Shown here piece by piece: positions 30,303 through 63,748 of a stretch of 64,000 bases of DNA (positions are counted from its first letter, which is position 1; each line of letters opens with the position of its first letter). This stretch comes from Eledone cirrhosa (lineage: Eukaryota), in NCBI GenBank assembly GCA_964016885.1, contig OZ024742.1, positions 176,638,001-176,702,000 on the forward strand, read 5' to 3'. Below the pieces are notes generated by a model. It saw nothing but the letters and a program-made list of their open reading frames with translations, was not told where the DNA came from and did no database searches. Position numbers and translations under genes: made by a program.

Positions 30303-33300
30303 GATTTCTTTTATTAGCCACCAGGGCCGACATGTAGGGGACAATACAAAGACAGGGACAGTGGGGGGTTTACAATAAGGTGGAGTAAAATTGCACAACT
30401 GCACGACTAATTTAACAATGAAAATATAAAAATATAAAATAAACTATGCATAAATATAATAAAATAAATTCCCCGATAGGGGGTGTACGCCCCTGGGGTG
30501 CTTCAATCCTGAACCACCCTCCGCTTCTAGGGCACCCAGGGAGAGCACCCCTCTCCTCAAGTTAGCTAGCCTATAGGCGCATGCTCAGAGTAGGCCCATT
30601 CACACGAGCCATTGTCGCCACGTTCACCCATCTTTTAGCAAATGTACTGGAGGGCAGCACTTCTCTCTCCACCCTCACCTTCCTTTCCAGGTGAAACTTG
30701 AAGAAATTGATGAGGGATTGGCCGAAGAGAAAAGTGTCTGTCTTTAGTCCTTTCAACGTGGTCCACCATATAATCTCTTTCGCAACTGCCACCAGACAGA
30801 GGAAAATTTCCTGCTCTTCCTGACTTAAGGAAGGCGGTGGATCGATCTTCACTATGGACTCGGCCGATAGTCGGATTCGTTCCACACGCGAAGAGTAGCT
30901 GTTCGACATAACTCCACAAGTCAGTAATGCACGGATATTGGACAAGTGCGTGCAGACCGGTTTCGTCGTTCTGTGCGCACGTTGCGCAGGTCCGTCTGAC
31001 AGCACTTCCGTGCCTGTAGAGTTTATCCCGAACCGGCAGTGCCCCCCCCCCCCGGTAGCACTGCCAAGCGAGGGATTTCTGGAAATTGTCCGTCGTCCCC
31101 GGCTCAAAAGTCCTCCGGTACAGACTGGTCAGTTCGACTTCGTCGAGGCCCAAAGCTTCTCCGAGTGCGTCATCGCACTTGCCCACCACTAATCCTCTAT
31201 AAAACTCGAGAGTGGAAGTTCCACTGATCGCATTGCCCGCTTGGTAGAGGGCAGTGAGTGCCTGGCAACATTCCAGGTGCCAGTCACCCAGTCTCGCTCT
31301 CTTCTTGACGCAGGACTGCAGCTCAGTCAGAGAAATGAGCTGCGGATAGGCCCGTCTGATAAACGGCGACCACACCTGTTCACCGTTGAGGCAGAATATC
31401 TGGAGATGTCGCAGCCTCAACGCATGTCTGCGCATCATGAGATTCGTCATGCCCAGCGCTCCGCGTAGAGGGTGCTGACAGCAGATGGACCGCCTCACCA
31501 ACGGATCTTGTCCCATCCACAAGAATTTGAAGAGGAGCCGTTCCAGTTTGACGAGGCGCGGCGGGGGCAAGGCACGACGGTCAGGCGGTAGTAGATGACG
31601 GACGCGATGTACGCATTCGCCGCCTCCGCGCGACCTTTCAGTGATAGCTTCCTCCCAGCCCATTTTGGGGTGAGACTGGCTACTCTGCTCTTTACCTCGT
31701 CCCAATTATTTTCCACCTGGAGGTCTGGTCCGAACCAAACCCGAGCAACTTTACCGGTCCGTCCGTCCAGCGCCCCACGACGCTGTTGGACGGCATGGGC
31801 TTGCCTCTCCAGGTTCAGAGCAGCAAGCCCACCGACATTTCCGGGTTAAGTTTGGCTCCTGTCAACCTTTCATATTCCTTCAATAAGGTGCCTACCACCT
31901 CGATTTCTGAGGTGTTCGACACCATCACGGTGATGTCGTCCGCATAAGCCGACACCGCCTTTCCACGTCCCGGTTCGAGCGGGATGCCCTGCAACAGCTC
32001 CAGCTTCCGCAGTAAAGGCTCGAGAGTCAATACGAACAGAAGGGAAGAGAGAGGACACACTTGACGGACCGATCGGGATAGCCGAAATGGTTCCGATAGG
32101 TGGCCATTAACCTTGACCACCGAGCATGTGTCGCTGTGCATTGCAACGATCCAGCTTCTAAAGACAGGGCCGAGGCCAGCTGCTTTGAGGACAAACTCCA
32201 GATACCGATGGTCGACCCTATCGAATGCTTTCGATTGATCTAAATTGATCAGAGTCCCACCGAAGCCAGGTTTACACTCTACCATCTCTATGATGTATCT
32301 CATGAGGTGGAGATTGTCGTGTATGGACCTGGCTGGGATTGCGCAAGTTTGCGCCTCCCCAACCAAATCCTCGACGACAAGCGCCAATCTCTTTGCTAAC
32401 ACCCTGGCCAAAATCTGAAACTCTGTGTTGAGCAGAGTTATGGGCCTGAAGTTGTCTAATGTATCCCTCTTGTTCTCGTCTTTTCTTATCAGCGTCACCA
32501 CTCCCCTGCTCACAGAACTGGGAATACTCCCATTCTGCTGCCAGTTGCAGTAGAGTGCTTCAAGGAGTTCGGAGAACTAGTGTGGCATATTTATGTAAAG
32601 CTCGTAGGGCAGGCCATCCAAACCGGGTGACTTGCGCCTAATGCAGCCGACAAGGGCGTCCTGAATTTCGGCTGAAGTAATCGGCCTTTCGCAGCGCTCA
32701 GCGTCGACCGACGAGATGCGCGGCAAGCCGTCAAGATAGGGACTGAAATCCGCTACTCTCTCTGACTCACCACTCTCTCAGAAACAACAGAGCAAAGTGC
32801 TGGCGAAAGGCCTCAGACATCCGCTTGGAATCGCTTATCTCGTGTCCGTCTCGGTCCGCCAAAGACCGAATTGTGGTTTCATTACCACGCTGCGCCTCCG
32901 CCACGCGGGCCCATCGAACAGCTTTAGTTCCCTCGTTACTCAGAGCACGCGCCTTAGCTCTGACAATGCAACCTTCGTGTTTGGCATTGAAGAAATGGTC
33001 TAATGCCATTCTCGCCCCTAGCACGTCAGTTGCGATGCCACTACAAATAGCCTCGTCTAACTTATCTACCAGCTCCCCCTCCTGTCTATTTTTCTCTAAC
33101 GCTAGTTCTATGCTGAACTCTATCGAAGTTACTTTAATCTCTCTTTTGAGAGCCACCCACCATCTGTTGTTGATGATCCCCCCTGTCAACTTTTGTTTAA
33201 CTAAATTCTTGACTCGGTCCCTGTAAGCCTTACGTGCCGGAAATGACATGTTCAGCTTCCAGTAACCCGGTCCTAACCTACGCGTTTTATTTAGGTCGAC

Positions 33301-35982
33301 CGTACAGATCACAAATTTGTGATCTGAATAGGCGACCGTTTTAAAAAGTGGACAGCCCACACTATTTCTATCTATTTTCCTAATGAAGATCCTGTCTATA
33401 TACGATCTAGATGACCCCATTCGGTTGGTCCATGTCCATACTTGTACATTGGGGAAATCTAGTCGATACCTGACAGACAGTTGGAACTGGCTGAGTAGGT
33501 GCTTGAGGCTTTTGCACCCCCACTCCTATCGGCTACTCCCACACAATCCCAGCGTGCGTCCAAGATGCCATTCCAGTCCCTCGCTAACAGTATAGGGCGA
33601 TCGTACCTAGAAAGGTCTCCAGGCGCCTAAAGATGTCAGGTCGTCTGACGCCTGTAGGGGCGTAGACGGCCAGCAGTCTAAAGGCACCACCTTCGCTACT
33701 TCTCACATCCAAGACGACCAACTTACTGTCCGGGTCCCGGAAGATCGAACTTACCTCGAGATCCAGTCCTTTCCTAAACAGCACTTCCACCCCTCATACC
33801 CGGCCTGCTAACAGATTCGAAGATCTGATAGTTGTCGAAAATGGGGGCTAGTGCGCGCGTGTCGGAAATTATGGTCTCGCTTACGGCAATCACATCCATT
33901 TCCAGCGACCTGAGGTCGTTGAGCAGGCGACCCTGCTTCCAGGGTGACCCCAGGTCGCGAACATTTAAACTTCCTACTCTTAATATGGCCATATGTGTAA
34001 GCTAAGAGAGAGATAGGGAAGGTTTACTTACCTCCCGGGTCTTGTGAAGGTCCTGTTGGTTCGACCTCCATGGTTGGTGGGGTTTCTTTTGAGAACCCCT
34101 TTAAAAGTCTTGATGTGGGTTTCACATTCGGGGTTCCCACGTCTTGAGGAAAGCTCTCTCGAATTTCTTTGAAAGAATTGAGTGACATTCGGACCAGAAG
34201 CAAATCTTCTGGCACGCAAAATGTGCTCATTTCAAAAATCTCCCCCTCTGTTTGAATGTCCTCGCTTCGCGCTAAGAGGGCCATCAGTTTATCGTTGACC
34301 CTTCTGACAAGCACGAAGTTTTTAACATTTTGTTGGTGTGGTTTTATTTGTTTTCGTTTTGGTGAAGGTGTTGGCGATGGTTTTGGTGGCGTTGTTTCGG
34401 GTATGTCTATGTTTGTTGTAGGTGTGGTGTCTGCAATTTCAGGTATTTGTGTGTTTATTTGTACTTGTGTTTGTTTAGGTTGTTTGCGTTTCGGGGATTG
34501 TGGAGGTGGTGTCGATGTTGCTGATGGTGCTGATGTTATTGGGGAAGTGTTTGCGTTAGTGGTGTCTGTATTTTTTGTTGTGTGTGTTTTTGTGTTTTGT
34601 TGGGGCTTTTTTTTGTGAGTTTTCTGTTTTTTTGCACTTTTGGGTTTTCCTTCATCTTCGCTGCTGGAAGACAAAGGGTCTGTGTCTGTGAGTGTCTCTG
34701 TGTCTGTGTGTGCGTTTATTGTTTTGTCTATGTGTATAATTGGGGGAGGGGGGGGGTAGGGGGAGTGGGAGAGCTTTCCTCGTTTTCTCCTTGGATTGGT
34801 TTTGGTGTAGGTGGTGATCCGGCTGTATTTGATGTTGGTGTCCGTGTTTTTGTTGATGTTGTTTTTGGTGGTGGTGGTGCAACTTTCCGTTCTGACACTG
34901 GCGTTGGCAACAAAGGAGGTTTGCGACCCTCTGCATTTTTGCGCTGAGGGCAGAAGGCTTGAAGATGCGTTGCTTCCCCGCAGACGAAGCAGCGTGGCCT
35001 TCTTCCGTCAATCATTAGTTGGATTGTTGTCCCGTCCTGCAGGCGGGCAAAATCCGGGATGTTATTCATATCCTCCGGTTTCATTTGGAGTAGAATCTCC
35101 AAAGACATTCCGGACCAGTCTTCTCTCTCTGTCCTTTTGATGTCCAGGAGGGTGGTGTCTGTCCCCTCCTCGATTACGCATCCCAGCAGCCACCATATGT
35201 TCATTCCTGGTGGGATGCTGGGAATGCGTACCTTCACTGTCCTTTTACCCATATAGGACGGATGCATGATAATGCGTTCCGTTCTGCAGGGGGTCACCGA
35301 TTGCTTAATAGCGAGGGCCTCGGTTTTGAACAGTACCGAGATGGTACCGAACTGTTTGCCTCTTGCTTTGTACTCTATGTTACTTCCGATGTACTCCAAA
35401 GCAGCCTCTACCTCTGCTTGGCTCGCAAGTTCCACTTTTCGTGTCTGCACCGAAATACATCGAAAGAGCACCGTCCTCCTTTGCATGGCCGCTATTGCCT
35501 CGTCTGGGATGGTCAGGTTTGCCCAGGACTTCTCCCGTTTAATTAGCCTCCACGCTTTGGCCAACTGTTCGTCTTTATCGCTAATATCAATATCAATATT
35601 CAATAAGCGCTATGTTTTTGCTGCTGCTGCAGTAAATGTGGTGTTTCTGATGCTCTTATTGTTGATGTCATTCTTGCTGTTGTTATTGGTGTTGCCACCG
35701 CCATCCTTGTTTACATTGAAGCTGTCGGTGTTATTGTCGTTATTGGTCTGAGTTGTTGTTGTGGTGGTGGTGGTGGTGGTGGCGGTGGTGGTGATGTCGT
35801 TTTCAGATGATACTGCTGCTATCGCAGAAGGTTGTGATGGTAGCTTTTGAGTTTTGCCTTCACATTCAGTAGAGTGGATGACAGGCATGACTGTAGCCGT
35901 CGTAGTCGTGGTGAAATCTACAGTGGCTGTCGCTAAACGTTTGACCTGAACGTTGTTTACCGTTTCAAGGTCGAACATTTCC
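30303..35982 (-). mobile_element. Tx1-clade (L1 group) non-LTR retrotransposon, family A copy 1, lacking its 5' UTR
   Basis: ORF1 plus APE-RT ORF2; AATAAA followed by (ATT)n at the 3' end. Confidence 0.92.
30571..33992 (-). pseudogene. Tx1 ORF2: AP endonuclease + RT + C-terminal Cys motif, multiple frameshifts
   Basis: GSLNVRDL, VSET, VYAP, SYIDRIF, YSDHK, GYWKLN, FRPITLLN, LDQSKAFDRVDH, AYADDIT. Confidence 0.92.
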
Positions 35983-35984
35983 AT
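34024..35984 (-). pseudogene. Tx1 ORF1 (gag-like, CCHC knuckle, T/P-rich linkers); one stop and one frameshift
   Basis: GRRPRCFVCGEATHLQAFCP (CX2CX4HX4C). Confidence 0.85.
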
Positions 35985-35987
35985 AAT

Positions 35988-38900
35988 TTTCGATTGATCT
36001 AAATTGATCAGAGTCCCACCGAGGCCAGGTTTACGCCCTACCCTCTCTATAATGTATCGTATTAGGTGGAGGTTGTCGTGTATGGACCTGGTTGGGATTG
36101 CGCAAGTTTGCGCCTCCACAACCAAATGCCCGACGACAAGCGCCAACCTCTTCGCTAACACCCTGGCCAAAATCTGAAACTCTGTGTTGAGCTGAGTTAT
36201 GGGCCTGAAATTGTCTAATGTGTCCCTCTTGTTATCGTCTTTCCTTATCAGCGTCACTACGCCCCGGCTCACAGAACTGGGAATACTCCCGTGTTGCTGC
36301 CAGTTGCAGTAGATGGCTTCAAGGAGATTGGAGAACAAGTCTGGCATATTTACGTAAAGCTCGTAGGGCAGACCATCCAAACCGGGTGACTTGCGCCTCA
36401 TGTAACCGACAAGGGTATCCTGAATCTCGGCTGAAGTAATCGGCCTATCGCAGCGCCCAGCGTCAGCCGTCGAGAGTTGCGGCAAGCCATCGAGGTAGTG
36501 ACTGAAGTCCGCCACCATCTCTGACCCGCCACTTCCCCCGAACAACCGAGCAAAATGTTTGAGAAAGGCCTCACACATCCTCTTGGAATCGCTCCGCTCG
36601 TGCCCATCTCGGTCCGTCAAAGACCGAATCGTGGTTTTATTACCACGTTGCGCCTCTGCCACGCGGGCCCATCGAACAGCTTTGGTTCCCTCGTCTCTCA
36701 GAGCACGCGCCTTAGCTCTGACAATGCAACCTTCGTGTTTCTCATTGAGGAAATGGTCTAATGCCATTCTCGCCGCTAGCACGTCAGTTGCAATGCACTA
36801 CCAACAGCCTCGTCTAACTTATCTACCAACTCCCCCTCATTTCTATTTTTCTCTAACGATAATTCTTTGCTAAACTCTATCGACATTACTCTAATCTCTC
36901 TTTTGAGAGCCCCCCCCCCCCCTATCGTTGACCCCCCCCCCCCCCTGTCAACTTTTTCTTAACTAAATTGTTGACCCGGTCCCTGTAAGCCTTACATGCC
37001 AGAAATGACATGTTTGGCTTCCGGTAGCCAGGTTCTAACCTACGCGTCTTATCTAGGTCGACTATACAGATCACAAACTTGTGATCTGAATAGGCGACCG
37101 TTTCAAAACCTTTTTCAGCTTACACTATTTCTGTCTATTTTCCTAATGAATATCCTGTCTATATACGATCTAGATGACCCTATGCGGTTAGCCCAGGTCC
37201 ACTCTGGAGTATTAGGGAAATCTAGTCGGTACCTGTCAGACAGTTGGGACTGGCTGATCTGCTCTCGCTGACAGCAATTACATCCATTTCTATAGACTTG
37301 AGGTCGTTGAGCAGGTGACCCTGCTTCCAGGACGATCCCAGGCCTCGAACATTTAAGCATCCTACTCTTAATACGGCCATGTTGGCAGGTTAAAAAGAGA
37401 GAGAGGAAGGTTTACTTACCTTTCGGGCTCTTGTGAAGGTCGGGCTGTTCGACCTCCATAGTTGGTTGGTTTCTTTTGGGAACCCCTTTAAAAGCCTTGA
37501 AGTGGGTTTTACGTTCGGGGTTCCCACGTCCCAAGGAAAGCTGTATCGTATTTCTTTGAATATATCGATCGACATTCGCACCAGAACCAAATCTTCCAGC
37601 ACGCGAAATGTGCTCCATTTAAAAATGTCCCCCTCTTTTTGTATATTTTCACTTCGTGCTACGAGGGCCATCAGTTCCTTGTTGGCCCTCCTGACGAGCA
37701 CGAAGTTTTGTATGTTTTGTTGGTGTGATTTTGTTTGTTTGCGTGGCAGTGGTGGTGATGGTTTTGGTGGTGTTGTTTCGGTTGTGTCTGTGTTTGTTGT
37801 GAGTGCGGTGTCTGTAGTTTCAGATGTTTGTGTGTATATTTGTTCTTGCGTCTGTTTAGGTTGTTTGCGTTTGGGGGATTCTGGTGATGGTGATGGTGGT
37901 GTTGATGTTATTGGAGAGATGTTTGCTTGGGTGGTGTCTGCGTTTTTTTATTATGGGTGATTTTGCTCTTTGTTTAGTTTTTTTTTTCTTTTTGTGTTTC
38001 CTTTTTTTGTATTCTGGGGGATTTGGGTTTTCCCTCATCTTCACTACTAGTAGATGAGGGGTATGTGTCTGGAAGTGTGTTTGTAGGTATGTTTATGGTT
38101 TTACTGGTGTGTGTATTTTTTTTTTGGGGGGGGGGGGAATTAGACAGCTTTCCTCGTTTCCCACTTGGGTGGTCAATGTTGGTGGTGGTCTTTCTATTGG
38201 TGGTTTTGCCGGTGCTGGTGTTGGTTGTGGTCCTCGCCCCGGCGTCGGCAGCAGTGGAGCCTTTCGACCCCTTGCCTCTTTCAGCAGTTGAGGGCAGGAG
38301 GCTCGCAAATGGGTTTTTTCCCCACAAACAAAACACTGCGGCCTTTTGCCTTCGGTCATAATGTGAATGACCGTCCCATTCTGATGGCGGATGTGGTCCA
38401 GGATTGTCTTCACATTCTCGGGCCTGATCTGGAGAAGGATCTCCAGGTCAACGCCGGACCAGTCCTCTCTGGCCGTTCTGGTCACTTCTATAGGGACGGT
38501 ATCCGTCCCCTCAACAATCACACATCCCAGAAGCCACCACATGTCAAGTCTTGGTGGGATTCTGGGAATGCGGAGACGGGCCGTTCTTTTTCCCATGTGG
38601 GAGGTGTATATTATGACCTTGTTGGTTTTGCAAGGAGTCATAGCGTGTTTCATAGCGAGGGCTTCTGACTTGAACAACACCGAAATGGTGCCGTACTGTC
38701 TGCCCCTCTCTATGTATTGGGTGTCTTCTCTGATGTACCTCAGCGTGACTTCAACATCTTATTGGGGGATTAAAGCTGCCCTTTTGGTTTGTGCTGAGAT
38801 GCATCTATAATGCACCGTTCTGCGCTCCACTGCCTCGATAACTTATACCGGGACAGTTAAGTTGGTCCAGGTTTGCTCTTGCTTGATGAGCTTCCATGCC

Positions 38901-39579
38901 TGGGCCAACTCTTCATCTTTGTTTGAGACGTCCATGTTAAAGCATGGCCTCTTTTTTGCTGTGAAAGTGTTCTTCTTGTTTTCGTTGGGGGTGTTGTTGT
39001 CGTTGTCGTTGTTCTTGTTGGTGTTGTTGTTAGCACTGTCGCTGTTATCATTGTTGTCTTTGTTGCCACCGTTGTTATCGGTGCAGTTGGTATTGTTGCT
39101 GCTGGTGTTGTCGCTATTTGTTTTCATGTTAGTGGTGTTGATATTGTTGTGCATTTGTTATTTGTTTTTGTTATCTGTATTTCCGTTGTGGCTGTTATTG
39201 TCATTTTTTTTCAAAATTAGAGTCCTCATTGGTATCATTGGTGTCTTTGTTTACATTGTTTGTGGTGGTGATTGTGTTATCAATTTGTGTTAGTTTCGCT
39301 GTAGCGCTCCTCTCAACTTCCACGTCGTTATCGCACGACAGCAGACATATCGCTGGGGGCATGGCTCAGCCATGTTATTTTTTCTCCGTAAATTTTTTAA
39401 CATGTAAAATAAGTTCAAATATTTGGGCCAAAAGACCCAAATATTATACTTTCCCGTTCACAGGGCAACATCTAAGGGTTATATCCCTTACACAACAAGA
39501 AATATTTAACAACAAATCATTTTAACAGACAAATAAAGCGACTTACTGGGACCGAGCCAAAAAGACGTCCGAACAGACC
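35988..39579 (-). mobile_element. Tx1 family A copy 2: 5' end, ORF1 (about 37412-39370) and a deleted, 3'-truncated ORF2
   Basis: Begins after (ATT)n at 39580; CFVCGEKTHLRASC; APE internally deleted near 37260; RT breaks off at LINLDQSK. Confidence 0.88.
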
Positions 39580-39589
39580 AATAATAATA

Positions 39590-39696: not shown

Positions 39697-39712
39697 CGAT
39701 TAATAATAATAA

Positions 39713-48405: not shown

Positions 48406-48417
48406 AATAATAATAAT

Positions 48418-48536
48418 AATAATTGTTTCTACATTTGGCACAAGGCCAGTAATTACCCGGTGTATTACTGGTACTTTATTTTATCGACCCCGTAATGATG
48501 AAAGGCAAATTTAACCTAGGCGGGATTTGAGCTCAG
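48418..48536 (-). mobile_element. SINE copy inside the (TAA)n tail of Dong C
   Basis: Family match; followed by (TAA)n at 48540-48612. Confidence 0.88.
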
Positions 48537-49725: not shown

Positions 49726-52196
49726 CAGAACCGCATGATCGACAACAACCAGAAGATGCTGTTTGGACAGCTTGAGGGGAAAGAAAGAGGCAACGACTTG
49801 ATCCCTGGGGCGGAGCAAACTAAAACATTCTGGAGAGGAATATGGGAGCAGGATGTTAGACACAATGCCCAGGCAGGGTGGATTGAGACAGTACAGAGGG
49901 AGATCGGTGAGCAGGCACAGCAACAGACTGATTTGAGTATCACAGTTGAAACTCTTAAGGGGCAGGCCAAAAAACTAACCAACTGGAAATCGCCAGGCCC
50001 AGATGGTGTGCAGGGGTATTGGATTAAACATTTAACATCCCCCCACCCGAAGCTGACGGCCATGTTCAATGACTGCTTGGTGTCGGGTGAGGTGCCAGAG
50101 TGGTTGACAAAAGGTACCACAGTTCTGATAATGAAAGACCGAATCAAGGGTAATGATGTTACCAACTATAGACCTATCACATGTCTGTCCGTAATGTGGA
50201 AACTGTTGACGAGCATTGTGTCTGAGGAAATCTACCATCACCTCCACACAAACAACTTGTTACCGGACGAACAGAAAGGATGCCGAAAGAAGTCACGTGG
50301 TACAAAGGACCAGTTACTTATTGATAAGATGGTAATGGGGAATTGCAGGAGGAGACACACTGATCTTGCCATGGGATGGATAGACTACAGAAAGGCATTT
50401 GACATGGTGCCTCATTCCTGGATCACCAAAAGCCTGGAGATCTTCAGGGTGGCAGATAACATCAGACAGTTGCTAGGCAGGAGTATGGGGTCCTGGGAGA
50501 CAGAGTTGACATCAACTGGAGTATCCTTGGGAAGCGTGAAGATCAAGAGAGGTATCTTCCAGGGAGATAGCCTGTCCCCTCTGTTGTTTGTCCTTGCCCT
50601 GATGCCCTTGACCATTATGCTGCGAAAAGTGAGAGCAGGATACAAGTTGGGAAGGGGAGAGCTTACCATCAATCACCTCCTCTTCATGGACGATCTTAAG
50701 CTCTTCGGGAAAAGTGAGAAGGAGTTGGATGTGCTTGTTGACACTGTCCGTATTTTCAGCAGTGATATATGTATGCAGTTTGGTATTGGTAAATGTGGAG
50801 TCATTGTGATGAAGAGGGGTAGGTTGAGCAGAAGTAACGGGATCCAGATACCAACAGGTGAGATGATAAAGGAAATTGACTCTGAGGAAGGATACAAGTA
50901 TTTGGGCGTTCTGGAGGCTGATGGCATAAAGAACAAAAAAATGAAGGAATTGTTAAGAACTGAATACATTCGGAGAGTAAGGAGCGTATTGAAGTCACAT
51001 CTGAACAGCAGAAATGCCATAAGCGCAGTAAATTCCCGAGCTGTGTCTATTATTAGGTACAGTGCGGGAATTCTGAGATGGAATGTTGCTGAACAGAAAG
51101 AAATGGATAGGAAGACTAGGAAGCTATTGACTATCTACAACATGTTCCACAAGAGGAGTGATGTCGATAGACTCTACCTAAGGAGATCTGAGGGTGGAAG
51201 AGGTCTTATCAGCATAGAGGACTGTGTTCAGATGGAGAAAAACAACCTATACAAATACGTGACCTATAGTAAGGAGCCAATGCTCAGAGCTGTACTGAAG
51301 GAGGGGACAGTAGGCCAGGGGATGTCCAGGGAGGAAATAACATCAAGGAGGAAGAGCAGCCTTAAGGGAAAACCCCTTCATAGTACCTTCTTTGAGAAAA
51401 CTGAATTTAGAGATCCACAGACATGGAACTGGTTGAGAAGAGGAGACCTCAAAAAGGCTACAGAAGGAATGCTAATGGCTGCGCAGGAGCAGGCCCTCAA
51501 AACGAAGTGGTTGAAGCACCATATCTACAAGGAGGAGGCCAGCCCACTGTGCAGGATCTGTGGAGAGAGAGAGGAGACTGTGGCTCACATTGTGTCCGAG
51601 TGTAAACACCTAGCCCAGACCCACTATAAGGGCTGGAGACACGATGTGATGGGCAGGGTGATCCACTGGCACCTGTGCAAAGTAAACAATCTACCACATT
51701 CTGAGAAATGGTATGAGCATAGGCCAGAGGCGGTGATGGAGAACAATCAGGTGAAGGTGCTGTGGGATTTTAGGATACAGACGGACAAAAAACTGGAACA
51801 CAATAGACCTGACCTGGTGGTTGTGGACAAAGAAAAAAGATCGTGCCTGATTGTGGATGTGGCCTGCCCGTTCGACACGAGAGTGCAAGAGAAGGAGGGG
51901 GAGAAAATTAACCGATACCAGGACCTAAAGTGGGAGGTTAAAAGGATTTGGAACTGCCATGAAGTCAAAGTGATCCCGATTGTCATAGGCGCACTGGGGA
52001 CTATCTCCAAAAGTTTCCAGGGATGGTTAAATAAAATCGGCCCCTTGACGCTTTTTTAACGCTTCAAAAGGCATGCTTGCTTGGAACAGCAAGAACCCTC
52101 CGATACGTCCTGAATATCTGAGGCTGCAGGTAGTGGCTTGATATTCAATCCAACGGACTTTCCAGTTAACCAACATCAATGACTGAGATTCAAGGA
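49726..52196 (+). mobile_element. R4/Dong family A copy 2, 5'-truncated and young, with (TAA)n tail at 52197-52261
   Basis: Colinear with A1 from about 22802. Confidence 0.95.
49735..52059 (+). CDS. R4/Dong RT + CCHC + RLE open frame (N-terminus missing; frameshift in the last 20 codons)
   Basis: YRPITCL, GIFQGDSLSP, FMDDLKL, CRICGEREETVAHIVSEC, NRPDLVVVD..IVDVACP. Confidence 0.9.
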   Translation: MIDNNQKMLFGQLEGKERGNDLIPGAEQTKTFWRGIWEQDVRHNAQAGWIETVQREIGEQAQQQTDLSITVETLKGQAKKLTNWKSPGPDGVQGYWIKHLTSPHPKLTAMFNDCLVSGEVPEWLTKGTTVLIMKDRIKGNDVTNYRPITCLSVMWKLLTSIVSEEIYHHLHTNNLLPDEQKGCRKKSRGTKDQLLIDKMVMGNCRRRHTDLAMGWIDYRKAFDMVPHSWITKSLEIFRVADNIRQLLGRSMGSWETELTSTGVSLGSVKIKRGIFQGDSLSPLLFVLALMPLTIMLRKVRAGYKLGRGELTINHLLFMDDLKLFGKSEKELDVLVDTVRIFSSDICMQFGIGKCGVIVMKRGRLSRSNGIQIPTGEMIKEIDSEEGYKYLGVLEADGIKNKKMKELLRTEYIRRVRSVLKSHLNSRNAISAVNSRAVSIIRYSAGILRWNVAEQKEMDRKTRKLLTIYNMFHKRSDVDRLYLRRSEGGRGLISIEDCVQMEKNNLYKYVTYSKEPMLRAVLKEGTVGQGMSREEITSRRKSSLKGKPLHSTFFEKTEFRDPQTWNWLRRGDLKKATEGMLMAAQEQALKTKWLKHHIYKEEASPLCRICGEREETVAHIVSECKHLAQTHYKGWRHDVMGRVIHWHLCKVNNLPHSEKWYEHRPEAVMENNQVKVLWDFRIQTDKKLEHNRPDLVVVDKEKRSCLIVDVACPFDTRVQEKEGEKINRYQDLKWEVKRIWNCHEVKVIPIVIGALGTISKSFQGWLNKIGPLTLF

Positions 52197-52207
52197 ATAA
52201 CAATAAC

Positions 52208-52261
<54 letters not shown>

Positions 52262-52263
<2 letters not shown>

Positions 52264-53045
52264 TTTCTTTATTAACCACAAGGGTTTACATAAAGTAGAC
52301 ATTAAGGACAGTGCAGGACAATGCAGGACGGTACAAATGGGCATTTCTGCGTGTAAAAAAACAAAAACAGAGGATGTAACAAAAATAACAATGAAAATAA
52401 CAATGAAAAATTCCCCAATAGGGGGGAGACTTCGGAGGGACATTTGTGGAGAAAGCCCAGTAAAAAGCCACAATGACCCTGACCACCAAGGCAAGTGCCC
52501 TCTCCCAGTTTTCCACCTTTAGTTTACAGGTATATACTCAGAGTCGGCCCATTCACTCGGGCCATTCTTGCTTCTCTCACCCATCTTTCAACAAAATGCT
52601 GGGAAGAGAGCACTTCCTTCTCTACTCTGATTTTCCTTTTCAAATGAAATTTGAAAAAGTCAATCAGAGCATCACCGAAGAGGTAAGTGCTCGTCTTCAG
52701 CCCTTTCAAACGTGTCCACCATACTATCTCTTTCGCCATGGCCACCAGGCAGATAAAAACTGCCTGCCCTTCCCGGCTAAAGGAGGAGGGCGGGGCAATC
52801 CTCACGATGGACTCAGATGATAGCCGGATCCGTCCTAAACGCGACAGCAGGTGTTCGACATAAACCCACAAGTCAGCAATTTTCGGACACTGGACGAGTG
52901 CGTGCAGGACGGTTTCGTCGCCCTGCGCGCATCTCGGACATGCCCGGCTGACGGCACCTCCATGCCTGTAGAGTTTATCCCGAACTGGCAAGGCTCCTCG
53001 GTAGCACTGCCAGGCCAGAGATTTCTGGAAGTTGTCCATAGGCCC
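52262..53045 (-). mobile_element. Tx1 family B copy 1 (3' 0.8 kb only)
   Basis: ORF2 C-terminus CPRC..ETVLHALVQC; 3' UTR with AATAAA abutting (ATT)n. Confidence 0.92.
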
Positions 53046-53544
53046 TGTGTAACTTTAGCATCCAAACAGACCGAAAAATAGATGCAAATAGACCTGATAT
53101 AATATTGAAGGACTTTAAAAAGAGGGTATGCCTGCTAATTGATATGTCTGTTCCAATAGACAAGAATGTATCTATAAAAACATTTGAAAAATTGAGCAAG
53201 TATAAGGACCTGGAGATAGAAATTGGAAAAATGTGGAAATTGAGAACTAAAACAATACCAGTGGCTGTAGGCGCTCTGGGAATGATACCTAAGGGGTCTA
53301 ATGATTACTTATCGCAAATCCCAGGAAACCCGCGTATAGGAGAAATACAAAAGGTAGTACTAATGGGAACTGCCCATATACTAAGGAAGATTCTGTCAAT
53401 ATAAGTACATCACAAGTCTAAACACTGAAGATGCATGTGTGAGTAGGTATGTTCTTTCTTGAACATGGCGGACCTTGTTGTCTCTTGAGGTCACTGGTTG
53501 TGACTTGGTGATAACTCGTATGAACATAAAGCAAGATAAATGCA
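53046..53544 (+). mobile_element. R4/Dong family B copy 3 (3' 0.5 kb)
   Basis: RLE end and 3' UTR near-identical to B1 and B4; TAA tail. Confidence 0.93.
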
Positions 53545-53561
53545 ACTATAATAATAATAAT

Positions 53562-54244
53562 AAGACGCACGTGGTGGATAGAATGTCTTGAAATCGCTGC
53601 CGTAAGTTTTGAATTTTTAACATATTTAAATCATTTGTGAAATAACAATTCTTAGTACAAATGTTACGTAAAGCATCCGGCTTGAGCCCAAAAAAAATTC
53701 GGACCCAAAATATATTGTTATAAGGCTCAAATATTCTACTTTGTATTGTACATTGTATATTCAAAAAAGAAAATGGCTATAAATGGAAGAAGAATAACCG
53801 CCCCTCCTCTGTCTACACTATATAGAACAGCCAAACAACAGCAATTTCACCAACACCAGAAACTAGATACACCACCTACCCCATCACCCCTCTGTGTACA
53901 CTAAACACAACAGCCAGATAACGGCAATTTCACCACCACCACAACCAATCTCAACATAATAATGATAATAATAATTACTATTATTATTGTCCCAAGTTTT
54001 AACAAAATGTTTAATTCCAACATTAAGGGAATTTATGTCAACACATGTACGCGACTAACCCCATAGATTCACCTAACGGACATCAGTAACGACAACGGCA
54101 TCACTACAGTCACCGCCGCCGCCCATCAATCATTACTACCACTATCCCATCACCGCCGCCACCACTCCTTCATTTCTACCACCGCTACCCCCCACTACCT
54201 TCTGTTAACTTACGAAAGGGGAGGATGGCGATCTCACTAGACAA
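53562..54244 (+). repeat. Orphan Tx1/L1-like 5' repeat (copy 2)
   Basis: Homologous to 25385-26016; ATG at 53773. Confidence 0.6.
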
Positions 54245-54797: not shown

Positions 54798-56822
54798 CAG
54801 ACATTCGAACACTACATTACAAAGAAACTTATGCTTATTCATTTTTGGGGTTTTTTCTGCCTGTTTGTTTGTTTGTTTATTTGTGTTCGTCTACAGCGTG
54901 ATAATGCCACACGTGAGCCACGTGGAGCGACGCAACCACCGGAGACGGTGAATCCACCGGTGGTTATGTAACATTCGCCAATACTCGATAAGAGTGTTTA
55001 AATGTCGAACCTAAACAGTTCGAATAACGGTGAAATGGAGACTAGAACGTCATGTGACAGACTCTCACCCAACAGGTGGCAGATAACATCAGACAGTTGT
55101 TGGGCAAAAGTATGAGGTCCTGGGAAACAGAGTTGACATCAACTGGAGAATCCTTGGGAAGCGTGAAGATCAAGAGAGGTATCTTCCAGGGAGATAGCCT
55201 GTCCCCTCTGTTGTTTGTCCTTGCCCTCATGCCCCTGACCAGTGTACTGCGAAAAGTGAGAGCAGGATACGAGTTGGGAAAGTGAGGGCTTACCATCAAT
55301 CACCTCCTCTTCATGGACGATCTTAAGCTCTTCGGGAAGAGTGAGAAGGAGTTGGATGTGCTTGTTGACACTGTCCGTATTTTCAGCAGTGATATATGTA
55401 TGCAGTTTGGTATTAGTAAGTGTGGAGTCATTGTGATGAGGAGGGGTAGGTTGAGCAGAAGTAACGGGATCCAGATAAAAACAGGTGAGATGATAAAGGA
55501 AATTGACTCTGAGGAAGGATATAAGTATTTGGGCGTTCTGGAGGCTGATGGCATAAAGAACAAAAAACTGAAGGAATTGTTAAGATCTGAATACATTCGG
55601 AGAATAAGGAGCGTAATGAAGTCACATCTGAACAGCAGAAATGCCATACGTGCAGTAAATTCCCGAGCTGTGTATATTATTAGGTACAGTGCGGGAATTC
55701 TGAGATGGAATGTTGCTGAACAAAAAGAAATGGATAGGAAGACTAGGAAGCTATTGACTATCTACAACATGTTCCACAAGAGGAGTGATGTTGATAGACT
55801 CTACTTAAGGAGATCTGAGGGTGGAAGAGGTCTTATCAGCATAGAGGACTGTGTTCAGATGGAGAAAAACAACCTACACAAATACTCGATTGATAGTAAG
55901 GAGCCAATGCTGACAACTGTACTGAAGGAGGGGACAATAGGCCAGGGGATGCCCAAGGAGGAAATAACATCAAGGAGAAAGAGCAGCCTCAGGAAAAATC
56001 CCTTCATAGTACCTTTTTGAGAAAACTGAATTTAGAGATCCACAGACATGGAACTGGTTGAGAAGAGGAAACCTTAAAAAGGCTACAGAGGGAATGTTAA
56101 TGGCTGCGCAGGAGCAGGCCCTCAAAACGAAGGGGTTGAAACACCATATTTACAAGGAGGAGGCTAGCCCACTGTGCAGGATCTGTGGAGTGAGAGAGGA
56201 GACTGTGGCTCACATTGTATCCGAGTGTAAACACCTAGCCCAGACTAACTATACGGGCTGGAGACATGATGTGATTGGAAGGGTGATCCACTGGCACCTG
56301 TGCAAAGTAAACAATTTACCACATTCTGAGAAATGGTATGAGCATAAGCCAGAGGCGGTGATAGAGAACGATCAGGTGAAGGTGATGTGGGATTTTAGGA
56401 TACAGACGGACAAGAAACTGAACCACAATAGACCTGACCTGGTGGTTGTGGACAAAGAAAAAAGATCGTGCCTGATTGTGGATGTGGCCTGCCCGTTCGA
56501 CACGAGAGTGCAAGAGAAGGAGAGGGAGAAAATTAGCCGATGCCAGGACTTAAATTGTGAGGTAAAAAGGATTTGGAACTGCCATGAAGTCAAAGTGATC
56601 CCGATTGTCATAGGCGCACTGGGGACTATCTCCAAAAGTTTCCAGGGATGGTTAAAGAAAATCGACCCCTTCACGCTTTTTGGAACGCTTCAAAAGGCAT
56701 GCTTGCTGGGAACAGCAAGAACCCTCCGATACGTCCTGAATATCTGAGGCTGCAGGCAGTGGCTTGATATTCATTCCAACGGACTTTTCAGTTAACTAAC
56801 ATCAATGACTGAGACTCAAGGA
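54798..56822 (+). mobile_element. R4/Dong family A copy 3: intact 5' end, about 1.7-kb internal deletion, (TAA)n tail at 56824-56893
   Basis: 5' UTR and first 24 codons joined directly to the mid-RT sequence gtggcagataac at about 55075. Confidence 0.92.
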
Positions 56823-56830
56823 GTAATAAC

Positions 56831-56894
<64 letters not shown>

Positions 56895-57136
56895 TTTTCT
56901 TTATTAACCACAAGTGTTCACATAAAGTAGACATTAAGGACAGTACAGGACAATACAGGACGGTACAAATGGGCATTTCTGCGTGTAAAAAAACAGAGGT
57001 TGAAATAAAATTAGAAAGAAAAATTCCCCAATAGGGGGGAGACTTCCAAGGGACATTTGTGGAGAAAGCCAATTAAAAGACCACAGTGGCCCTGACCACC
57101 AGGACAAGTGCCCTCTCCCAGTTTTCCATCTTTAAT

Positions 57137-60100
57137 TTACAGACACATACTCAGAGAAGGCCCATTCATTCGGGCCATACTTGCTTCTCTCACCCATCTT
57201 TCAACAAAATGCTGGGAAGAGAGCACTTCCCTCTCTACCCTGATTTTCCTTTTCAAATGAAATTTGAAAAAGTTAATCAGGGCATCACCGAAGAGGTAAG
57301 TGCTCGTCTTCAGCCCTTTCAAACGTGTCCACCATACTATCTCTTTCGCCATGGCCACCAGACTGATAAAAACTGCTTGCCCTTCCAGGCTAAAGGAAGG
57401 GGGCGGGGCAATCCTCACGATGGACTCAGCTGATAGCTGGATCCGTCCTACACGTGACAGCAGGTGTTCGACATAAACCCACAAGTCAGCAATGCTCGGA
57501 CACTGGACGAGTGCGTGCAGGACGGTTTCGTCGCCCTGCGCGCATCTCGGACATGCCCGGCTGACGGCACCTCCATGCCTGTAGAGTTTATCCCGAACTG
57601 GCAAAGCTCCTCGGTAGCACTGCCAGGCCAGGGATTTCTGGAAGTTGTCCATAGGCCCCGGCCCGAAAGTCCTTCCGAAGAGATTGGCTAGTTGATTTTC
57701 GTCGACGCCTAGAGTTTCTCCAAGTACGTCGTCGCTCTTCCCCTCCACTAATCCCCTATAGAACGCCAAGGTGGAGTTTCCACCGATCACATTACCCGAT
57801 TGGTCGAGGGCTGTGAGCGCCTGAAGACATTCCAGTCTCCAAGCGCTCCCTCTCGGTCTTCGCTTGACCCAGGACTACAGCTCCGTCAAGGAGACGAGCT
57901 GGGGAAAAACGTGTTTTGCAAACGGCGACCACACCTGATCACCGTCGAGGAAGAGGTGGAGATGTCGTAGCCTGAGCGCGTGTCTGCGCATCATCAGCCA
58001 CGGCATGCCCAGCCCTCCACGTAGCGGGTGTTGACAGCAGATGGACCGCCTGACCATCGGAGCGCGTCCCTTCCACAAGAAGCGAAAGAGCAAACGCTCC
58101 AGCGCAGTCAGGCGAGGCTTAGGACAAGGTACGACGGTCAGGCGGTAGCAGATGACAGACGCGATGTACGCGTTAGCCACCTCCGCTCGACCTTTCATGG
58201 ATAGCTTCCTCTCCGCCCATTTCTGGGTGAGAGAAGCCACCCTGCTCGTCACCTCGTCCCAGTTTTTGTCCGTCTGGAGGTCCGGACGGAACCAGACCCC
58301 TAGCAATTTAACCGGTCCGTCCGTCCAGCGCCCGACGACGCTGTTGGACGGCATGGACCTGCCTCTCCAGGTGCCGAGCTGCAGGCCCACTGACTTTTCC
58401 TGGTTGATCATTGCTCCTGTCACCGCTTCGTATTCTCTTAGTGTAGTGCCGATCGCCTCGATGTGTTTGGCGTTCGACACCACTACGGTGACATCGTCGG
58501 CATATGCTGACACGGATCTTCCGCATCCTAGTTCGCGCGGGACCCCCCTCAACGTCTCCAGTTTGTGCAGTAATGGCTCGTACAATAGGGACGAAAGCGG
58601 ACATCCTTGGCGGACCGAGCGCATGATGTTGAACGGTTCCGAAAGGTGACCGTTCACTCTCACTACAGAGCAGATGTCGCTGTGCATGGCAGCGATCCAG
58701 CCTCTGAAGACGGGCCCAAAGCCAGCCGCCCTCAGGACTGCCGTTAGGTAACTATGGTCGACCCTATCGAAGGCTTTCGACTGATCTAAATTGATCAAAG
58801 ACCCACCCGTGCCAGGTTCCCTAGCTACCCTCTCTACGATGTATCGCATGAGGTGGAGGTTGTCGTGGATGGATCTGTCGGGAATGGCGCATGTCTGTGC
58901 CTCTCCCACCAGACCACCAACGACAAGCGCCAACCTCTTTGCTAGCACCTTGGCCAAAATATTGAACTCTGTTTTTAGCAGAGTTATGGGCCTAAAATTA
59001 TCTATGTTATCCCCCTTGTTTTTGATCCTTTCTCAGCAGCCCCACCGCTCCTCGGCTCACAGAGCTGGGAATTTTCCCGTTCTGTTGACAGTTGGAGGCC
59101 TCCGAACAAGTTTGGCATTTGTACGTAAAGTTCATAGGGCAGACCATCCAAACCAGGCGATTTACCCCTTGTGCAACTAGTCATTGCATCCCGTACTTCA
59201 GCGGTTGTTATCGGCTTTTCGCAACACTCCGCCTCAGTGGCCGAAAGCCGCGGCAGTCCGTTGAGGTAGACACTAAAGTCCATCCCTCGATCCGGCCCGC
59301 CACTGCCCCCGAACAGCTGAGCGAAGTGTCGCTGAAAAGCTTCACACATTTGCCCGGGATCGAGTAGCATGCGCCCGTCGTGGTCCACCAAAGACCGGAT
59401 CGTGGCTTTGTTGCCACGACGCGCCTCCGCCACTCGGGCCCATTGAACGGCTTTCGTCCCCTCATGTCTGAGACCACGCACCCTAGCTCTGACAACGCAG
59501 CCTTCGTGCTTTGCATTGAAGAATTGGTCAAGGGCCAATTTCGCCGCAAGTACGTCGGTCGCGATGCCTTTGCTAAGTGCCTCATGTAATTTTCTAACTA
59601 ATTCTCCCTCTGCTCTATTTTTCTCTATTGCTAAAGTCTTACTAAACCTAATGGACTCTATTCTAATTGCTCTTTTCAGAGCAAACCACCACTTGTTGTT
59701 GACGATGGCCCCCGTCAACGCCCGCTTAACTAGTTCGCTAATCCGGTCTCTGTAGGCCTTGCGCGCTGGTAAGGACGCGTTTAGCTTCCAGTAGCCGGGT
59801 CCTCGTCTATGAAGCCTATCTAAGTCAAGCACACAGATCACGAATTTGTGGTCCGTGTAGCTGACTATCTTGAATTGTGGACAGCCTATGCTAGACCTAT
59901 CTATTTCCCTACAAAATACTCTATCTAGATATGATCTGGATGACCCTATGCGATTTGTCCAAGTCCACATTGGTACATTCGGAAAATCCATTCGGTACCT
60001 GTCAGACAGTTCAAAACGTCTGAGCAGGTTGGTGAGACTCTTGCACCCTCCTTCCCTAACCACTAATCCCACACAATCCCAGCGTGCATCTAAGATCCCG

Positions 60101-60527
60101 TTCCAGTCGCCCACTAACACTAAAGAGCGGGACGTTCCAAGAAAGGTCTCCAGACGCCGGAAGAAATCAGGCCGCCCTGCTCCTGTCGGGGCATGAACGG
60201 CCACTAACCTGAAAGCTTGCCCGTCTCCGTTGGTCACGTCCAGCACCACCAACTTACCTTCTGGGTCCAGGAAGAAGGCCCGTATGGCAAGATCCAAACC
60301 TCTCCGAAAAACACAGCAACTCCTCCCCCCGATCCCGGACGGCTGGGAGATGCGTACACATCGTAGCCGCCGAAGATCGGTGCGAAAGCCTGTGCATCGG
60401 AGATTCTGGTCTCGCTGATGGCCACTACATCTATGTTTAGTGACCTGAGGTCGCTGAGCAGGTGGCCTTGCTTCCATGACGACCCCAAGCCACGCATATT
60501 TATGCTGCCTATTCTGAGTGAGGTCAT
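57137..60527 (-). pseudogene. Tx1 ORF2 (APE-RT-Cys), several frameshifts
   Basis: GSINMRGL, ISET, VGDWN, SYLDRVF, TDHK, VRQGCPLS, AYADDVT, CPRC..HALVQC. Confidence 0.93.
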
Positions 60528-60561
60528 GTTGAAAAGGAGTGGAAAAGATGGGAAAGACCAC

Positions 60562-62555
60562 TTACCTTACTTCTCGTAGGGGAAGGACGGTTTTTCCATC
60601 CTTTTCACTGCTTGTGGCCTCCTCAGGAAGGATGTCCTTATAAATCCTCCTGGAGAGTGCTTGTCGGAAGTCTCCGATGTCTTTGGGTAATTTTTGTTTT
60701 AGTGTCATGTACGTTTTCTGTGTGATGCGAGTGATTTGTATGTGTGGAGGTGGTGTGAATTTTGGGGTTGTTGTGTAGTCTTTTTCTGTGATGCTGGTGT
60801 TGTGTTGGATGTAGTGTAATAATTGCTTGTTGTTCAAATTTAATGCTGTGTAGTGTGTATCGTTTTGGTTGTTTTGTTTTGTTTGCGTTTGTTGTGGGTT
60901 TGTTTCTGTTTCGCATTTTGGTGACTTTTGTGGTGTAGGTGATGGTGGTGTTGGGGTTAATGATGGTGATGGTGTTGGTGTTTGGGTTGATGGGGTTGGT
61001 GATGCTGGTGTGGATACTGGCATATCTGTCCTAACTTTTTTGTTTCTTAGTTTATTTGTTTCCCTCTGTATTTTGTTTTTGGAGGGGGAAGGAAGAGAAT
61101 TTTTTCTTTTTTGGTTTCTTTTTTTTTTTCGGATATCGTTTCCCACTCCTCGTCGTCACGATCTGTCTCCAGTTGTGATAGGCCGGGGAGTGGCAAATCC
61201 TCCACAGCCGTTAGTTTTGGTTGTGGTGTGGTGGATGGTGTAGGCGCTGGTGCTAGTTCTGAAGCGTTGGGTGGTGGTGGTGTTGGTTTTGCTGGTGGTG
61301 GTAGTGGTGTTGGTTTTGCTACTGTTGCTGGGGTTGTTGCTGTTATAGTTGCTTCTGTTGTTGCTGCTACAGTTGTTGCTGCCATCTCTGCTACTGGTGG
61401 TGTTGATGGTTGTGTCACTGGGGTGGGTAGGAGAGGTGGCCTCAACCTTTTAGCCTGAGGGCAGAAAGCCCTTAGGTGGGTTCCTTCACCACAAACGACA
61501 CACCTAGGTCTTCTGCCCTCGACAATTACCGTGAGGTGGCTGCCGTCAGTGAGGTCTATTACCTCTGGGATCTCCTCAATGCTTTTTTGGTCCGCTTGGA
61601 TCAGGAGCTCCATCCCAGATCCGGACCAGTTTTCCTGCTTTTCTTTTGCTACTGCTATTATTTTCGTGTTGGCTTCGATGCCGGCGAGGACAGCCGCTAT
61701 TAGCCAGGGAATTTCGATGGCCGGTGGAACGTGGGTCACCCTGATCTTTACGAGTCTCTGGCCACAATAGCTTGGGACGAGTGTGAGGTCGTCACTTTTT
61801 AATGGGGCCATGGAGTGTTCTCTAGCCTCCTCTGGTGTTTCAAAGAACACATCCACGGTTCCACACTTTTGCCCACGTCTGATGTGGGTTTTTCTTGCCC
61901 ACACATGTCCCAAAGCTTTTTGGATTTGGGACTCAGATGCCCGTTCCACTCGGCGCGATTTTACATTTATTGTTCTATACGACACGGTGCACAGGCGCCG
62001 ATGCTCCATTTTATTAGGTGGGGGGGTGAGGCTGACCCTGTACCCATCTTTCTTTACCATTTGTTTGGCATTTTCTAAATCTTCTTGAGTTACCGTGAAC
62101 GCTTCGAATTGTTTTGCTACGATGGCGAAACTGAGGGTCGGTTTTATAATGTCATTGTTGTTGTTGTTGCTATCGTTATTTGTGTTAATCTTAATTTTTG
62201 TTTCAGTTGTGGTGGTGGTGACGTCACTCGTCTTTGGTGCGGAAGAGTCCATTTTGCTTGATTTCATTTCGACATCACGAGTTAATTTATTTTTTTCTTC
62301 TTTTGTTTCTGTTGTCGCGGTGGTGGTGGGGGTGGTGGTTCTCGCGGTGGTGGTGGTGGTGGAGGCTTTAACACCTGCAGTCATTGGTAATGGCGGGAAA
62401 TGAATGTCTGCCTGAGACAAATTTAAAATATTGCTACTGCTTATATTTTTTTTTGTGTTGGCAAACGTAGTAACATTTACAATGGTGGTGTTGGTGTGAG
62501 GTGTTATTTTGAGAGGAAGGCTTTCAGCTGCTTCGTGCAGAGGGGAATTAGCCAT
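60562..62555 (-). CDS. Tx1 ORF1 (about 660 aa if the single -1 shift at the A11 run 61119-61129 is corrected)
   Basis: GRRPRCVVCGEGTHLRAFCP knuckle; ORFs 61047-62555 and 60562-61146 overlap. Confidence 0.85.
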
Positions 62556-62793
62556 TTTCTTTCAAAGAAATTTTTGGATAATAATAAAAGTTAAAATTTT
62601 GGGCACAAGGCCCCAATCTTTTTGGGTGTCCTTTTCGGAAAACAATGTATGTGCGCTTATAAACAGTTAACAATAAAATTTTCCATAAATGACAATTTTT
62701 AACAAACGGAAATAACAAACCTTTGCGGAGCTCACGATGATACGATTTACTACGTAGGTCGCCAATAATAATAATAATAATAATAATAATAAT

Positions 62794-63305
62794 CACATCT
62801 CAATCTTGTGGAACTTAAGCATCCAAACAGACCGAAAAATAGATGCAAATAGACCTGATATAATATTGAAGGACTTTAAAAAGAGGGTATGCCTGCTAAT
62901 TGATATGTCCGTTCCAATAGACAAGAATGTATCTATAAAAACATTTGAAAAATTGAGCAAGTATAAGGACCTGGAGATAGAAATTGGAAAAATGTGGAAA
63001 TTGAGAACTAAAACAATACCAGTGGTTGTAGGCGCTCTAGGAATGATACCTAAGGGGTCTAATGATTACTTATCGCAAATCCCAGGAAACCCGCGTATAG
63101 GAGAAATACAAAAGATAGTACTAATGGGAACTGCCCATATACTAAGGAAGATTCTGTCAATATAAGTACATCACAAGTCTAAACACTAAAGATGCATGTG
63201 TGAGTATGTATGTTCTTTCTTGAACATGGCGGACCGTGTTGTCTCTTGAGGTCACTGGTTGTGACTTGGTGATAACTCGTATGAACATAAAGCAAGATAA
63301 ATGCA
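62794..63305 (+). mobile_element. R4/Dong family B copy 4 (3' 0.5 kb) between TAA tracts
   Basis: RLE end plus 3' UTR. Confidence 0.94.
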
Positions 63306-63325
63306 TAATAATAATAATAATAATA

Positions 63326-63748
63326 ATACAGACGGACAATAAATTAGAACACAATAGGCCTGACATGATACTTTTGGACAAAGAAAAAAGATCGTGCCTG
63401 ATTGTAGATGTAGCCTGCCCATTTGACACGAGAGTGCAAGAAAAGGAGAGGGAGAAATTTTACCGATACCAGCACTTAAAGTGGGAGGTAAAAAGGATTT
63501 TGAACTGCCATGAAGTCATGGTTGTCCCGATTGTTCTAGGTGCACTAGGTACTATCTCAAAGAGTTTCGAAGGATGGTTAAAGAAGATTAGTCCAGCCCC
63601 GCTTTTTGGAACACTTCAAAAGGCATGCTTGCTGGGAACAGCAAGAACCCTCCGATACGTCCTGAATATCTGAGGCTGCAGGTAGCGGATTGATATTCAT
63701 TTCAACAAACTTTCCAGTTAAATAACAACAATGACTGAGACTCAAGGA
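63326..63748 (+). mobile_element. R4/Dong family A copy 4 (3' 0.42 kb)
   Basis: NRPDMILLD..YVLNI stop, then 3' UTR and TAA. Confidence 0.93.

Follow-up and report, generated by a model that had tools for sequence, protein, structure and literature searches.

Long interspersed elements (LINEs) are taken to operate from a single bicistronic RNA. Among long terminal repeat (LTR) retrotransposons, the accessible part of PMC5580714 describes in Drosophila copia an intron of ~3 kb that covers all of POL and whose removal gives a gag-only RNA; in the plant Ty1/Copia elements EVD (shGAG) and BARE1, splicing from a conserved donor likewise leads to an mRNA for the structural protein alone, and U1 also blocks premature termination. 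As far as the accessible part of PMC5860796 goes, splicing of human L1 RNA is harmful to the element, the SpIREs are dead-end products whose donor lies in the 5' untranslated region (UTR) and is retained within a RUNX3 site, and no ORF2-spanning intron is described. Half-L1 elements (HAL1), which form mammalian genomic families, are ORF1-only, non-autonomous L1 derivatives, the form expected of a retrocopy of a spliced RNA (PMC5753468, accessible in part). In Octopus vulgaris, 13 recently active L1-Tx1 families with 421 insertions are reported (PMC13282606, accessible in part). The window analyzed here is the whole stretch of 64,000 nucleotides from Eledone cirrhosa (contig OZ024742.1, positions 176,638,001 to 176,702,000, forward strand), and it harbors four minus-strand copies of a two-ORF, L1/Tx1-type LINE, referred to as B, B2, A2, and A1 (Table 1). 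In the three copies that retain the ORF1/ORF2 junction (B, A1, and A2), the ORF1 stop codon is embedded in a perfect donor-like motif, AG/GTAAGT (the slash marks the putative exon-intron border). The best single explanation, which we advance tentatively on sequence grounds, is that splicing from this motif to the 3' UTR may remove ORF2 and yield an ORF1-only mRNA. No intron spanning ORF2 was found described for Tx1 or any other LINE, as judged from titles and the openings of abstracts, most subscription papers being outside the coverage (in the accessible part of PMC9115989, 'Tx1' and 'splic' do not occur); hence, the statement of a previous sequence-only reading that no description for Tx1 was known holds for the literature searched, even though copia, an LTR element, represents a precedent.

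The donors recognized by that reading at the three junctions (AAG/GTAAGT at 60565-60560, GAG/GTAAGT at 34031-34026, and AAG/GTAAGT at 37419-37414) were confirmed, all of them on the minus strand, and the motif lies 38 nt (B) or 39 nt (A1 and A2) upstream of the ORF2 ATG. The claim that it falls into different ORF1 frames in the two families was also borne out: in B, the stop is the TAA at 60564, read AGG TAA GT (donor phase 2), whereas in A1 and A2 it is the TAA at 34026 and 37414, respectively, read GGT AAG TAA (phase 1). The terminal ORF1 frame of B is backed by its similarity to both A copies (p = 0.0005, 2000 shuffles), the other two frames giving p = 0.16-0.72; for A2, which has a 1-nt deletion ~50 nt upstream, the junction frame was deduced from that of A1. 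Within the 340 nt located 5' of ORF2, AG/GTAAGT is the sole 8-mer that these three copies have in common (B/A1/A2 offsets 40/41/41), and the two halves of it are the only common 7-mers. Since the motif occupies the same position but different reading frames in A and B, protein coding alone is not a sufficient explanation for it.

The 8-mer occurs eight times in the window versus 2.16 expected (0/100 shuffles reach eight), although they do not count as independent, those at the three junctions tracing back to one ancestral site. By chance, it would fall no more than 12 nt from any chosen point with a probability of 3e-4 (9e-4 given the TAA of B); its retention under neutrality has a probability of 0.007 when 8 nt are considered and of up to 0.07 with 5 nt, all these figures being post-hoc and referring to one ancestral site. 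Chance and common descent, i.e., an ancestral stop codon and Gly-Lys codons that both families kept in the absence of selection at the RNA level, might in principle be enough: just one ancestral site in two families is involved, neutral retention may reach 7% when the TAA is discounted, similar motifs exist in ORF2 and in antisense, and the finding was selected out of a large scan. We consider this unlikely, given that the flanking ORF1 DNA has no other common 7-mer, that the nucleotides were kept while the frame changed, and that two outside proteins (P0008 and P0010, see below) are compatible with the motif over long branches. The motif probably reflects selection on RNA, for the binding of U1 in one way or another.

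The sequence-only reading had missed the strong donors located 280-360 nt into ORF2, as well as the possibility of a short intron producing an ORF1-ORF2 fusion. The perfect 8-mer of A1 ORF2 is at a different place from that of B ORF2; moreover, the 8-mer is found in antisense at 57294 (B) and 52681 (B2), and another one, at 16743, lies outside the elements. As many as six of the seven sense sites matching 8-9 of the 9 consensus positions lie no more than 360 nt from the ORF1 stop, and just four such sites, none of them 9/9, are present in 15.7 kb of plus-strand RTE-like elements. This distribution would also be expected if U1 were bound at the ORF1/ORF2 border without productive splicing, blocking premature polyadenylation or aiding transcription, with the T-rich tract of the 3' UTR serving polyadenylation. 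In agreement with this, premature termination in EVD is inhibited by U1 placed at its donor (PMC5580714, accessible in part), and the A-rich ORF1s contain several AATAAA. However, B ORF2 has no downstream AATAAA on which such a block could act (there is a single one in A1 and in A2), and U1 binding alone, which appears improbable, would leave both the exact placement on the stop and the clean acceptor of B unexplained.

The motif and the region between it and ORF2 might also be read in terms of translation. The spacers are 78-82% pyrimidine within an A-rich context, the distance to the ORF2 ATG is constant, stops exist in two frames around the motif, and the A1 stop is enclosed in a small hairpin; all this would suit a termination/reinitiation signal for ORF2, the likeness to a donor being incidental. 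Such a signal has little probability, since the junction RNA folds are no better than those of shuffles (z from +0.4 to -1.5), B folds differently, and the exact match to the splice consensus would be unexplained. The search in Rfam gave 0 matches.

Concerning the other end of the putative long intron, the acceptors proposed for family B are CAG trinucleotides that rank 1/123 (56979) and 1/15 (52347) among the YAGs downstream, by a simple in-house pyrimidine count that favors any T-rich tract. The CAG at 56979 closes a 64-nt AG-free zone, has the branch-like TTCTAAT ~32 nt upstream, and is the sole AG from a conserved 3' UTR motif to the poly(A) signal. Both AGs proposed for A1 (30407 and 30399) do exist, but the choice is ambiguous: among 119 YAGs, a third one, TAG 30444, ranks 1, TAG 30407 ranks 2, and CAG 30399 ranks 6; the GCAG of the last aligns with that of B, with a 2-nt gap in between. 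The distance from the 3' end, anticipated as about 85-105 nt, is 84 nt (56979), 85 nt (52347), 107 nt (30407), and 99 nt (30399). The identity between the A1 and B 3' UTRs is 35/87 after the stop, 22/43 in the tract, and 11/12 at the poly(A) signal. The conserved motif, formed by a C-run and a G-run and possibly folding into a small hairpin, is identical at 16/18 nt between A1 and B (57021-57038, 52408-52425, and 30466-30483, minus strand) and is placed within the proposed long intron; the 3' UTR folds have z of just -0.4 to -1.4. Overall, the acceptor evidence appears good in B and ambiguous in A, i.e., moderate at best.

According to the long-intron explanation, the motif would be a 5' splice site maintained by selection on RNA, and a fraction of the transcripts would lose, by splicing, the ~3.6 kb that extend from the donor on the ORF1 stop as far as the AG closing the T-rich tract (B, 3587 nt; A1, 3633 or 3625 nt). 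The resulting mRNA would retain the 5' UTR, the whole ORF1, and the poly(A) signal, and its coding region would gain a short tail with a stop located in the last exon. Splicing would delete the native ORF1 stop; the frame so created has a stop at 20 codons in both B and B2 (the same terminal codon being TGA in B and TAA in B2) and at 9 codons in A1 via 30399. A stop in the last exon followed by a short 3' UTR would escape nonsense-mediated decay, and this might be the reason why the donor lies on the ORF1 stop. The ORF1-only mRNA would supply an excess of ORF1p, while the unspliced RNA would be the source of ORF2p as well as the template, the intron thus being inherited. ORF2p prefers the RNA that encoded it (cis-preference; PMC5860796, accessible in part); since only the unspliced RNA would make ORF2p, an intron holding ORF2 could be retained by a LINE. 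RNA without ORF2 would be unable to copy itself in cis, so that spliced genomic copies need not exist, and their absence, which the sequence-only reading regarded as a refutation, is a weak one. Should reverse transcription depend on the C-run/G-run motif, the spliced RNA could not serve as its template and half-L1 copies would be unexpected. The endonuclease deletion of A2, the A2/A1 fusion, and the 5' break of B2 were considered as possible spliced products and rejected, their ends not being GT-AG.

Alternatively, splicing from the same donor could end at the nearest YAG that is usable inside ORF2; this short intron, of 52 nt in B and 58 nt in A, would include both the ORF1 stop and the ORF2 ATG, so that an ORF1-ORF2 fusion protein would be made. 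The phases fit in both families in spite of the differing donor phases (in B, the phase-2 donor with CAG 60514; in A, the phase-1 donor with TAG 33974 or 37362), a double match expected about once in nine by chance, and the spacer offers a pyrimidine tract (60514 ranks 5/123 YAGs). Yet, under cis-preference (PMC5860796, accessible in part), such an RNA should be reverse-transcribed and its intron eliminated, whereas three of the three copies retain it; furthermore, the ORF2 codons account for the AGs, a TAG lies closer to the donor in A1 (30 nt), and 52-58 nt may fall below the minimum intron size of the host, on which nothing for cephalopods was found among the papers listed. This fusion is very improbable.

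The analysis was extended to outside proteins by means of a profile built from the three cores of ORF1 (best 150 of 727 matches; 151 outside proteins examined), and relatives named from Octopus bimaculoides, O. sinensis, and Argonauta hians are among the matches listed; word-indexed protein searches with single ORF1 pieces as query gave no match. The ORF1 C-terminal motif, recognized by pattern, is present in 7/151 proteins, which make up six loci when P0062 and P0155 are counted as a single locus. P0010 ends with GK and P0008 (from A. hians) with GKS, as a phase-1 G/GTAAGT would encode; such ends in 2/6 loci have p = 0.002 (background 0.6% per site), which becomes p = 0.004 (2/8 loci) when the looser cases P0043 and P0050 are added. 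Two fragments without the C-terminal domain likewise end with GK, roughly the chance expectation. The ends of P0008 and P0010 are compatible with the presence of the donor motif in their DNA. In the phylogenetic tree constructed with 20 ORF1 cores picked among the longer matches (A2 omitted), B, P0010, A1, and P0008 form a group with moderate support (80/81; inner nodes 89/88 and 88/83; none starred), and the proteins without the GK end lie outside it. Of two scans of prokaryotic genome contigs, the first gave 50 pattern matches, none of which was confirmed, and the second 0 matches. The tail of P0006, tried as splicing evidence, was discarded: its best six-frame window score (37) is unconvincing and it is apparently frameshifted with respect to P0155.

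Several observations weigh against the removal of ORF2 as a long intron. Four of the six outside loci (P0006, P0062/P0155, P0016, and P0065) lack the GK end, the two Octopus RefSeq-named ones among them ending in Q and in a tail unlike the 3' ends of the window; in addition, GK could be conserved as protein inside the A group, which would leave B as the sole witness of the frame shift. A perfect donor in B ORF2 has P = 0.046 under synonymous recoding, and the 8-mer also occurs in antisense. On the acceptor side, the score is biased as stated above, the three AGs of A1 include a B-aligned one that ranks only sixth, acceptor 30407 gives no stop ahead of the tail, the branch point is not conserved (the TTCTAAT noticed by the sequence-only reading exists in the copy ending at 56979 and is absent from the 52347 copy and A1), and the segment after the AG (A1-B 46/73) is only marginally above neutral conservation (p = 0.07). 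U-rich tracts located 5' of AATAAA can serve polyadenylation. Neither spliced, ORF2-less copies nor HAL1-like ones were found among the four element copies in the window (0/4). Lastly, the conserved splice sites of human L1 are described as by-products of other functions (PMC5860796, accessible in part).

Table 1. Position of the Tx1-type elements of the window and of their candidate splicing signals.
Feature	Position	Strand	Remarks
Element B, decayed full-length L1/Tx1-type non-LTR retrotransposon	56894..62763	-	(ATT)n at both flanks
B ORF1	60562..62555	-	ZCCHC3-like core, CCHC knuckle, low-complexity linker, ~80-aa C-terminal domain
B candidate 5' splice site AG/GTAAGT	60560..60567	-	GT 60565; includes ORF1 TAA
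B inter-ORF spacer	60528..60559	-	82% pyrimidine
B ORF2	57137..60527	-	Endonuclease, RT, zf-RVT; interrupted by frameshifts and one stop
CAG closing the 52-nt intron, in-frame ORF1-ORF2 fusion	60514..60516	-	B
Second AG/GTAAGT, B ORF2 endonuclease	60252..60259	-	Sense; codons E-G-K-L
Third B ORF2 donor-like site	60208	-	8/9 match
B T-rich tract and candidate acceptor	56979..57022	-	Branch-like TTCTAAT (57016-57010); CAG ending 56979
B putative terminal exon	56894..56978	-	In-frame stop after 20 codons; AATAAA at 56905
Copy B2	52262..53045	-	3' 0.8 kb only
B2 candidate acceptor	52347	-	CAG ending 52347
Element A2	35988..39579	-	5' UTR, ORF1, ORF2 as far as RT; joined to A1 ORF1 start
A2 candidate 5' splice site AG/GTAAGT	37414..37421	-	GT 37419; ORF2 ATG 37380
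Element A1	30303..35987	-	ORF1 start through 3' tail; decayed, without 5' UTR
A1 candidate 5' splice site AG/GTAAGT	34026..34033	-	GT 34031; ORF2 ATG 33992
A1 ORF2 further donors	33721..33756	-	AG/GTAAGT 33754 (33749-33756); CA/GTAAGT 33726 (homologue of B 60257)
A1 conserved motif, T-rich tract, candidate acceptors	30399..30483	-	Motif 30483-30466; TAG 30444, TAG 30407, CAG 30399

As regards their classification, the elements share with the Tx1 group the two ORFs, an ORF1 with a CCHC knuckle and a ZCCHC3-like core, an ORF2 of the endonuclease-RT-zinc finger type, and an apparent microsatellite targeting. A target-sequence preference is typical of many Tx1. (ATT)n adjoins 3/3 of the 3' ends (two of which may be one insertion) and 2/2 of the intact 5' ends, the elements lying inside (AAT)n/(ATT)n tracts (30285-30302, 52196-52261, 56824-56893, 62764-62793, and 39580-39600). 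The ORF2 matches RVT_1 (7e-26) and zf-RVT (1e-8) of Pfam, both past the cut-off, and Exo_endo_phos (8e-5), just below it; in the PDB, where few LINE clades are represented, the reverse transcriptase (RT) is closest to LINE-1 ORF2p (4e-28 versus 6e-10 or weaker for the R2 type). ORF1 exhibits a CX2CX4HX4C knuckle, and its core has Atlas matches of 0.90-0.94 to zf-CCHC and ZCCHC3 RNA-binding clusters; no match to it was found in Pfam, so that an RNA recognition motif (RRM) is only a lead. The combination of RRM and CCHC knuckle in ORF1 is a trait of the L1 clade/Tx1 (PMC5203782, accessible in part). The Tx1 label would fit these two-ORF LINEs; in the literature searched, no Tx1 description was found that includes a conserved donor on the ORF1 stop, a pyrimidine spacer, and a 3' UTR acceptor.

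The ORF1 C-terminal domain (~80 aa) is conserved on the minus strand at 60565-60867 (B) and 34027-34344 (A1), and B ORF1 carries one frameshift near 61050-61150, upstream of its terminal frame. The domain has no match in Pfam; a small alpha/beta fold is predicted (mean pLDDT 78), with the final ~24 residues unstructured, and fold searches gave weak small alpha/beta matches only (none with E <0.001, best Z 5.4). Families A and B share 74.5% identity across 3382 ORF2 columns, 205/381 (54%) identical fourfold sites, and 75/211 (36%) identical ORF1 core residues. A probable segmental duplication involves 50448-53566 and 55075-63329, the first copy being devoid of ~5 kb of the Tx1-type element; B2, which has common flanks with B, is probably its segmental duplicate, that is, one duplicated insertion, and hence not an independent copy. 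At 35984-35990, A2 ORF2 is fused in frame with the start of A1 ORF1, probably through a deletion within a head-to-tail pair.

The window has 41% GC, with microsatellites and decayed retroelements throughout. The Tx1-type copies are interspersed with putative RTE-like plus-strand elements, placed tail-to-tail with them and ending in the same (AAT)n/(ATT)n repeat; one RTE-like element has a 1108-codon open frame with an RT domain (26495-29821, plus strand) and a 90% similar copy at 39708-42591. Open frames resembling what we take to be a decayed hAT-type transposase are located at 3077-4607 (minus strand). A short interspersed repeat is present in many copies (2312-2402, 5775-6634, 10957-11085, 39580-39701, 43287-43472, 44232-44424, and 48406-48536), one of which matches the N-terminus of gene model P0155. 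At 16750-16766 (minus strand), a long T-rich tract and an AG precede 17 nt followed by CAG/GTAAGT (GT 16748), a possible 17-nt host microexon whose T-rich tract has a 22-nt exact match to that of the A1 3' UTR; if this microexon is real, the elements may sit in sense inside a host intron.

The comparison with the described systems may be summarized in terms of structure. Like the elements spliced in the copia manner, those of the window have a conserved U1-like donor closing the structural gene; with respect to the conserved acceptor past the catalytic gene of the former, B has a clear one, whereas A1 has three AGs and the branch point is not conserved. Unlike copia, EVD, and BARE1, which are LTR elements with one ORF and proven splicing, the window holds a bicistronic LINE whose ORF1 has its own stop and whose splicing is predicted. 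Conserved splice sites within a LINE RNA are shared with human L1 and its SpIREs (PMC5860796, accessible in part). It is conceivable, albeit tentatively, that in a Tx1-type LINE lineage of octopods (Octopus-like hosts and Argonauta) ORF2 lies in a functional intron under selection and a spliced mRNA is devoted to the synthesis of ORF1p, in convergence with copia gag, and that the intronic 3' UTR motif may mark the unspliced RNA as the sole template. If this were true, it would represent a different solution to the need of a LINE to make far more ORF1p than ORF2p, it would offer a route to half-L1 elements, and host splicing would be a control point for these elements.

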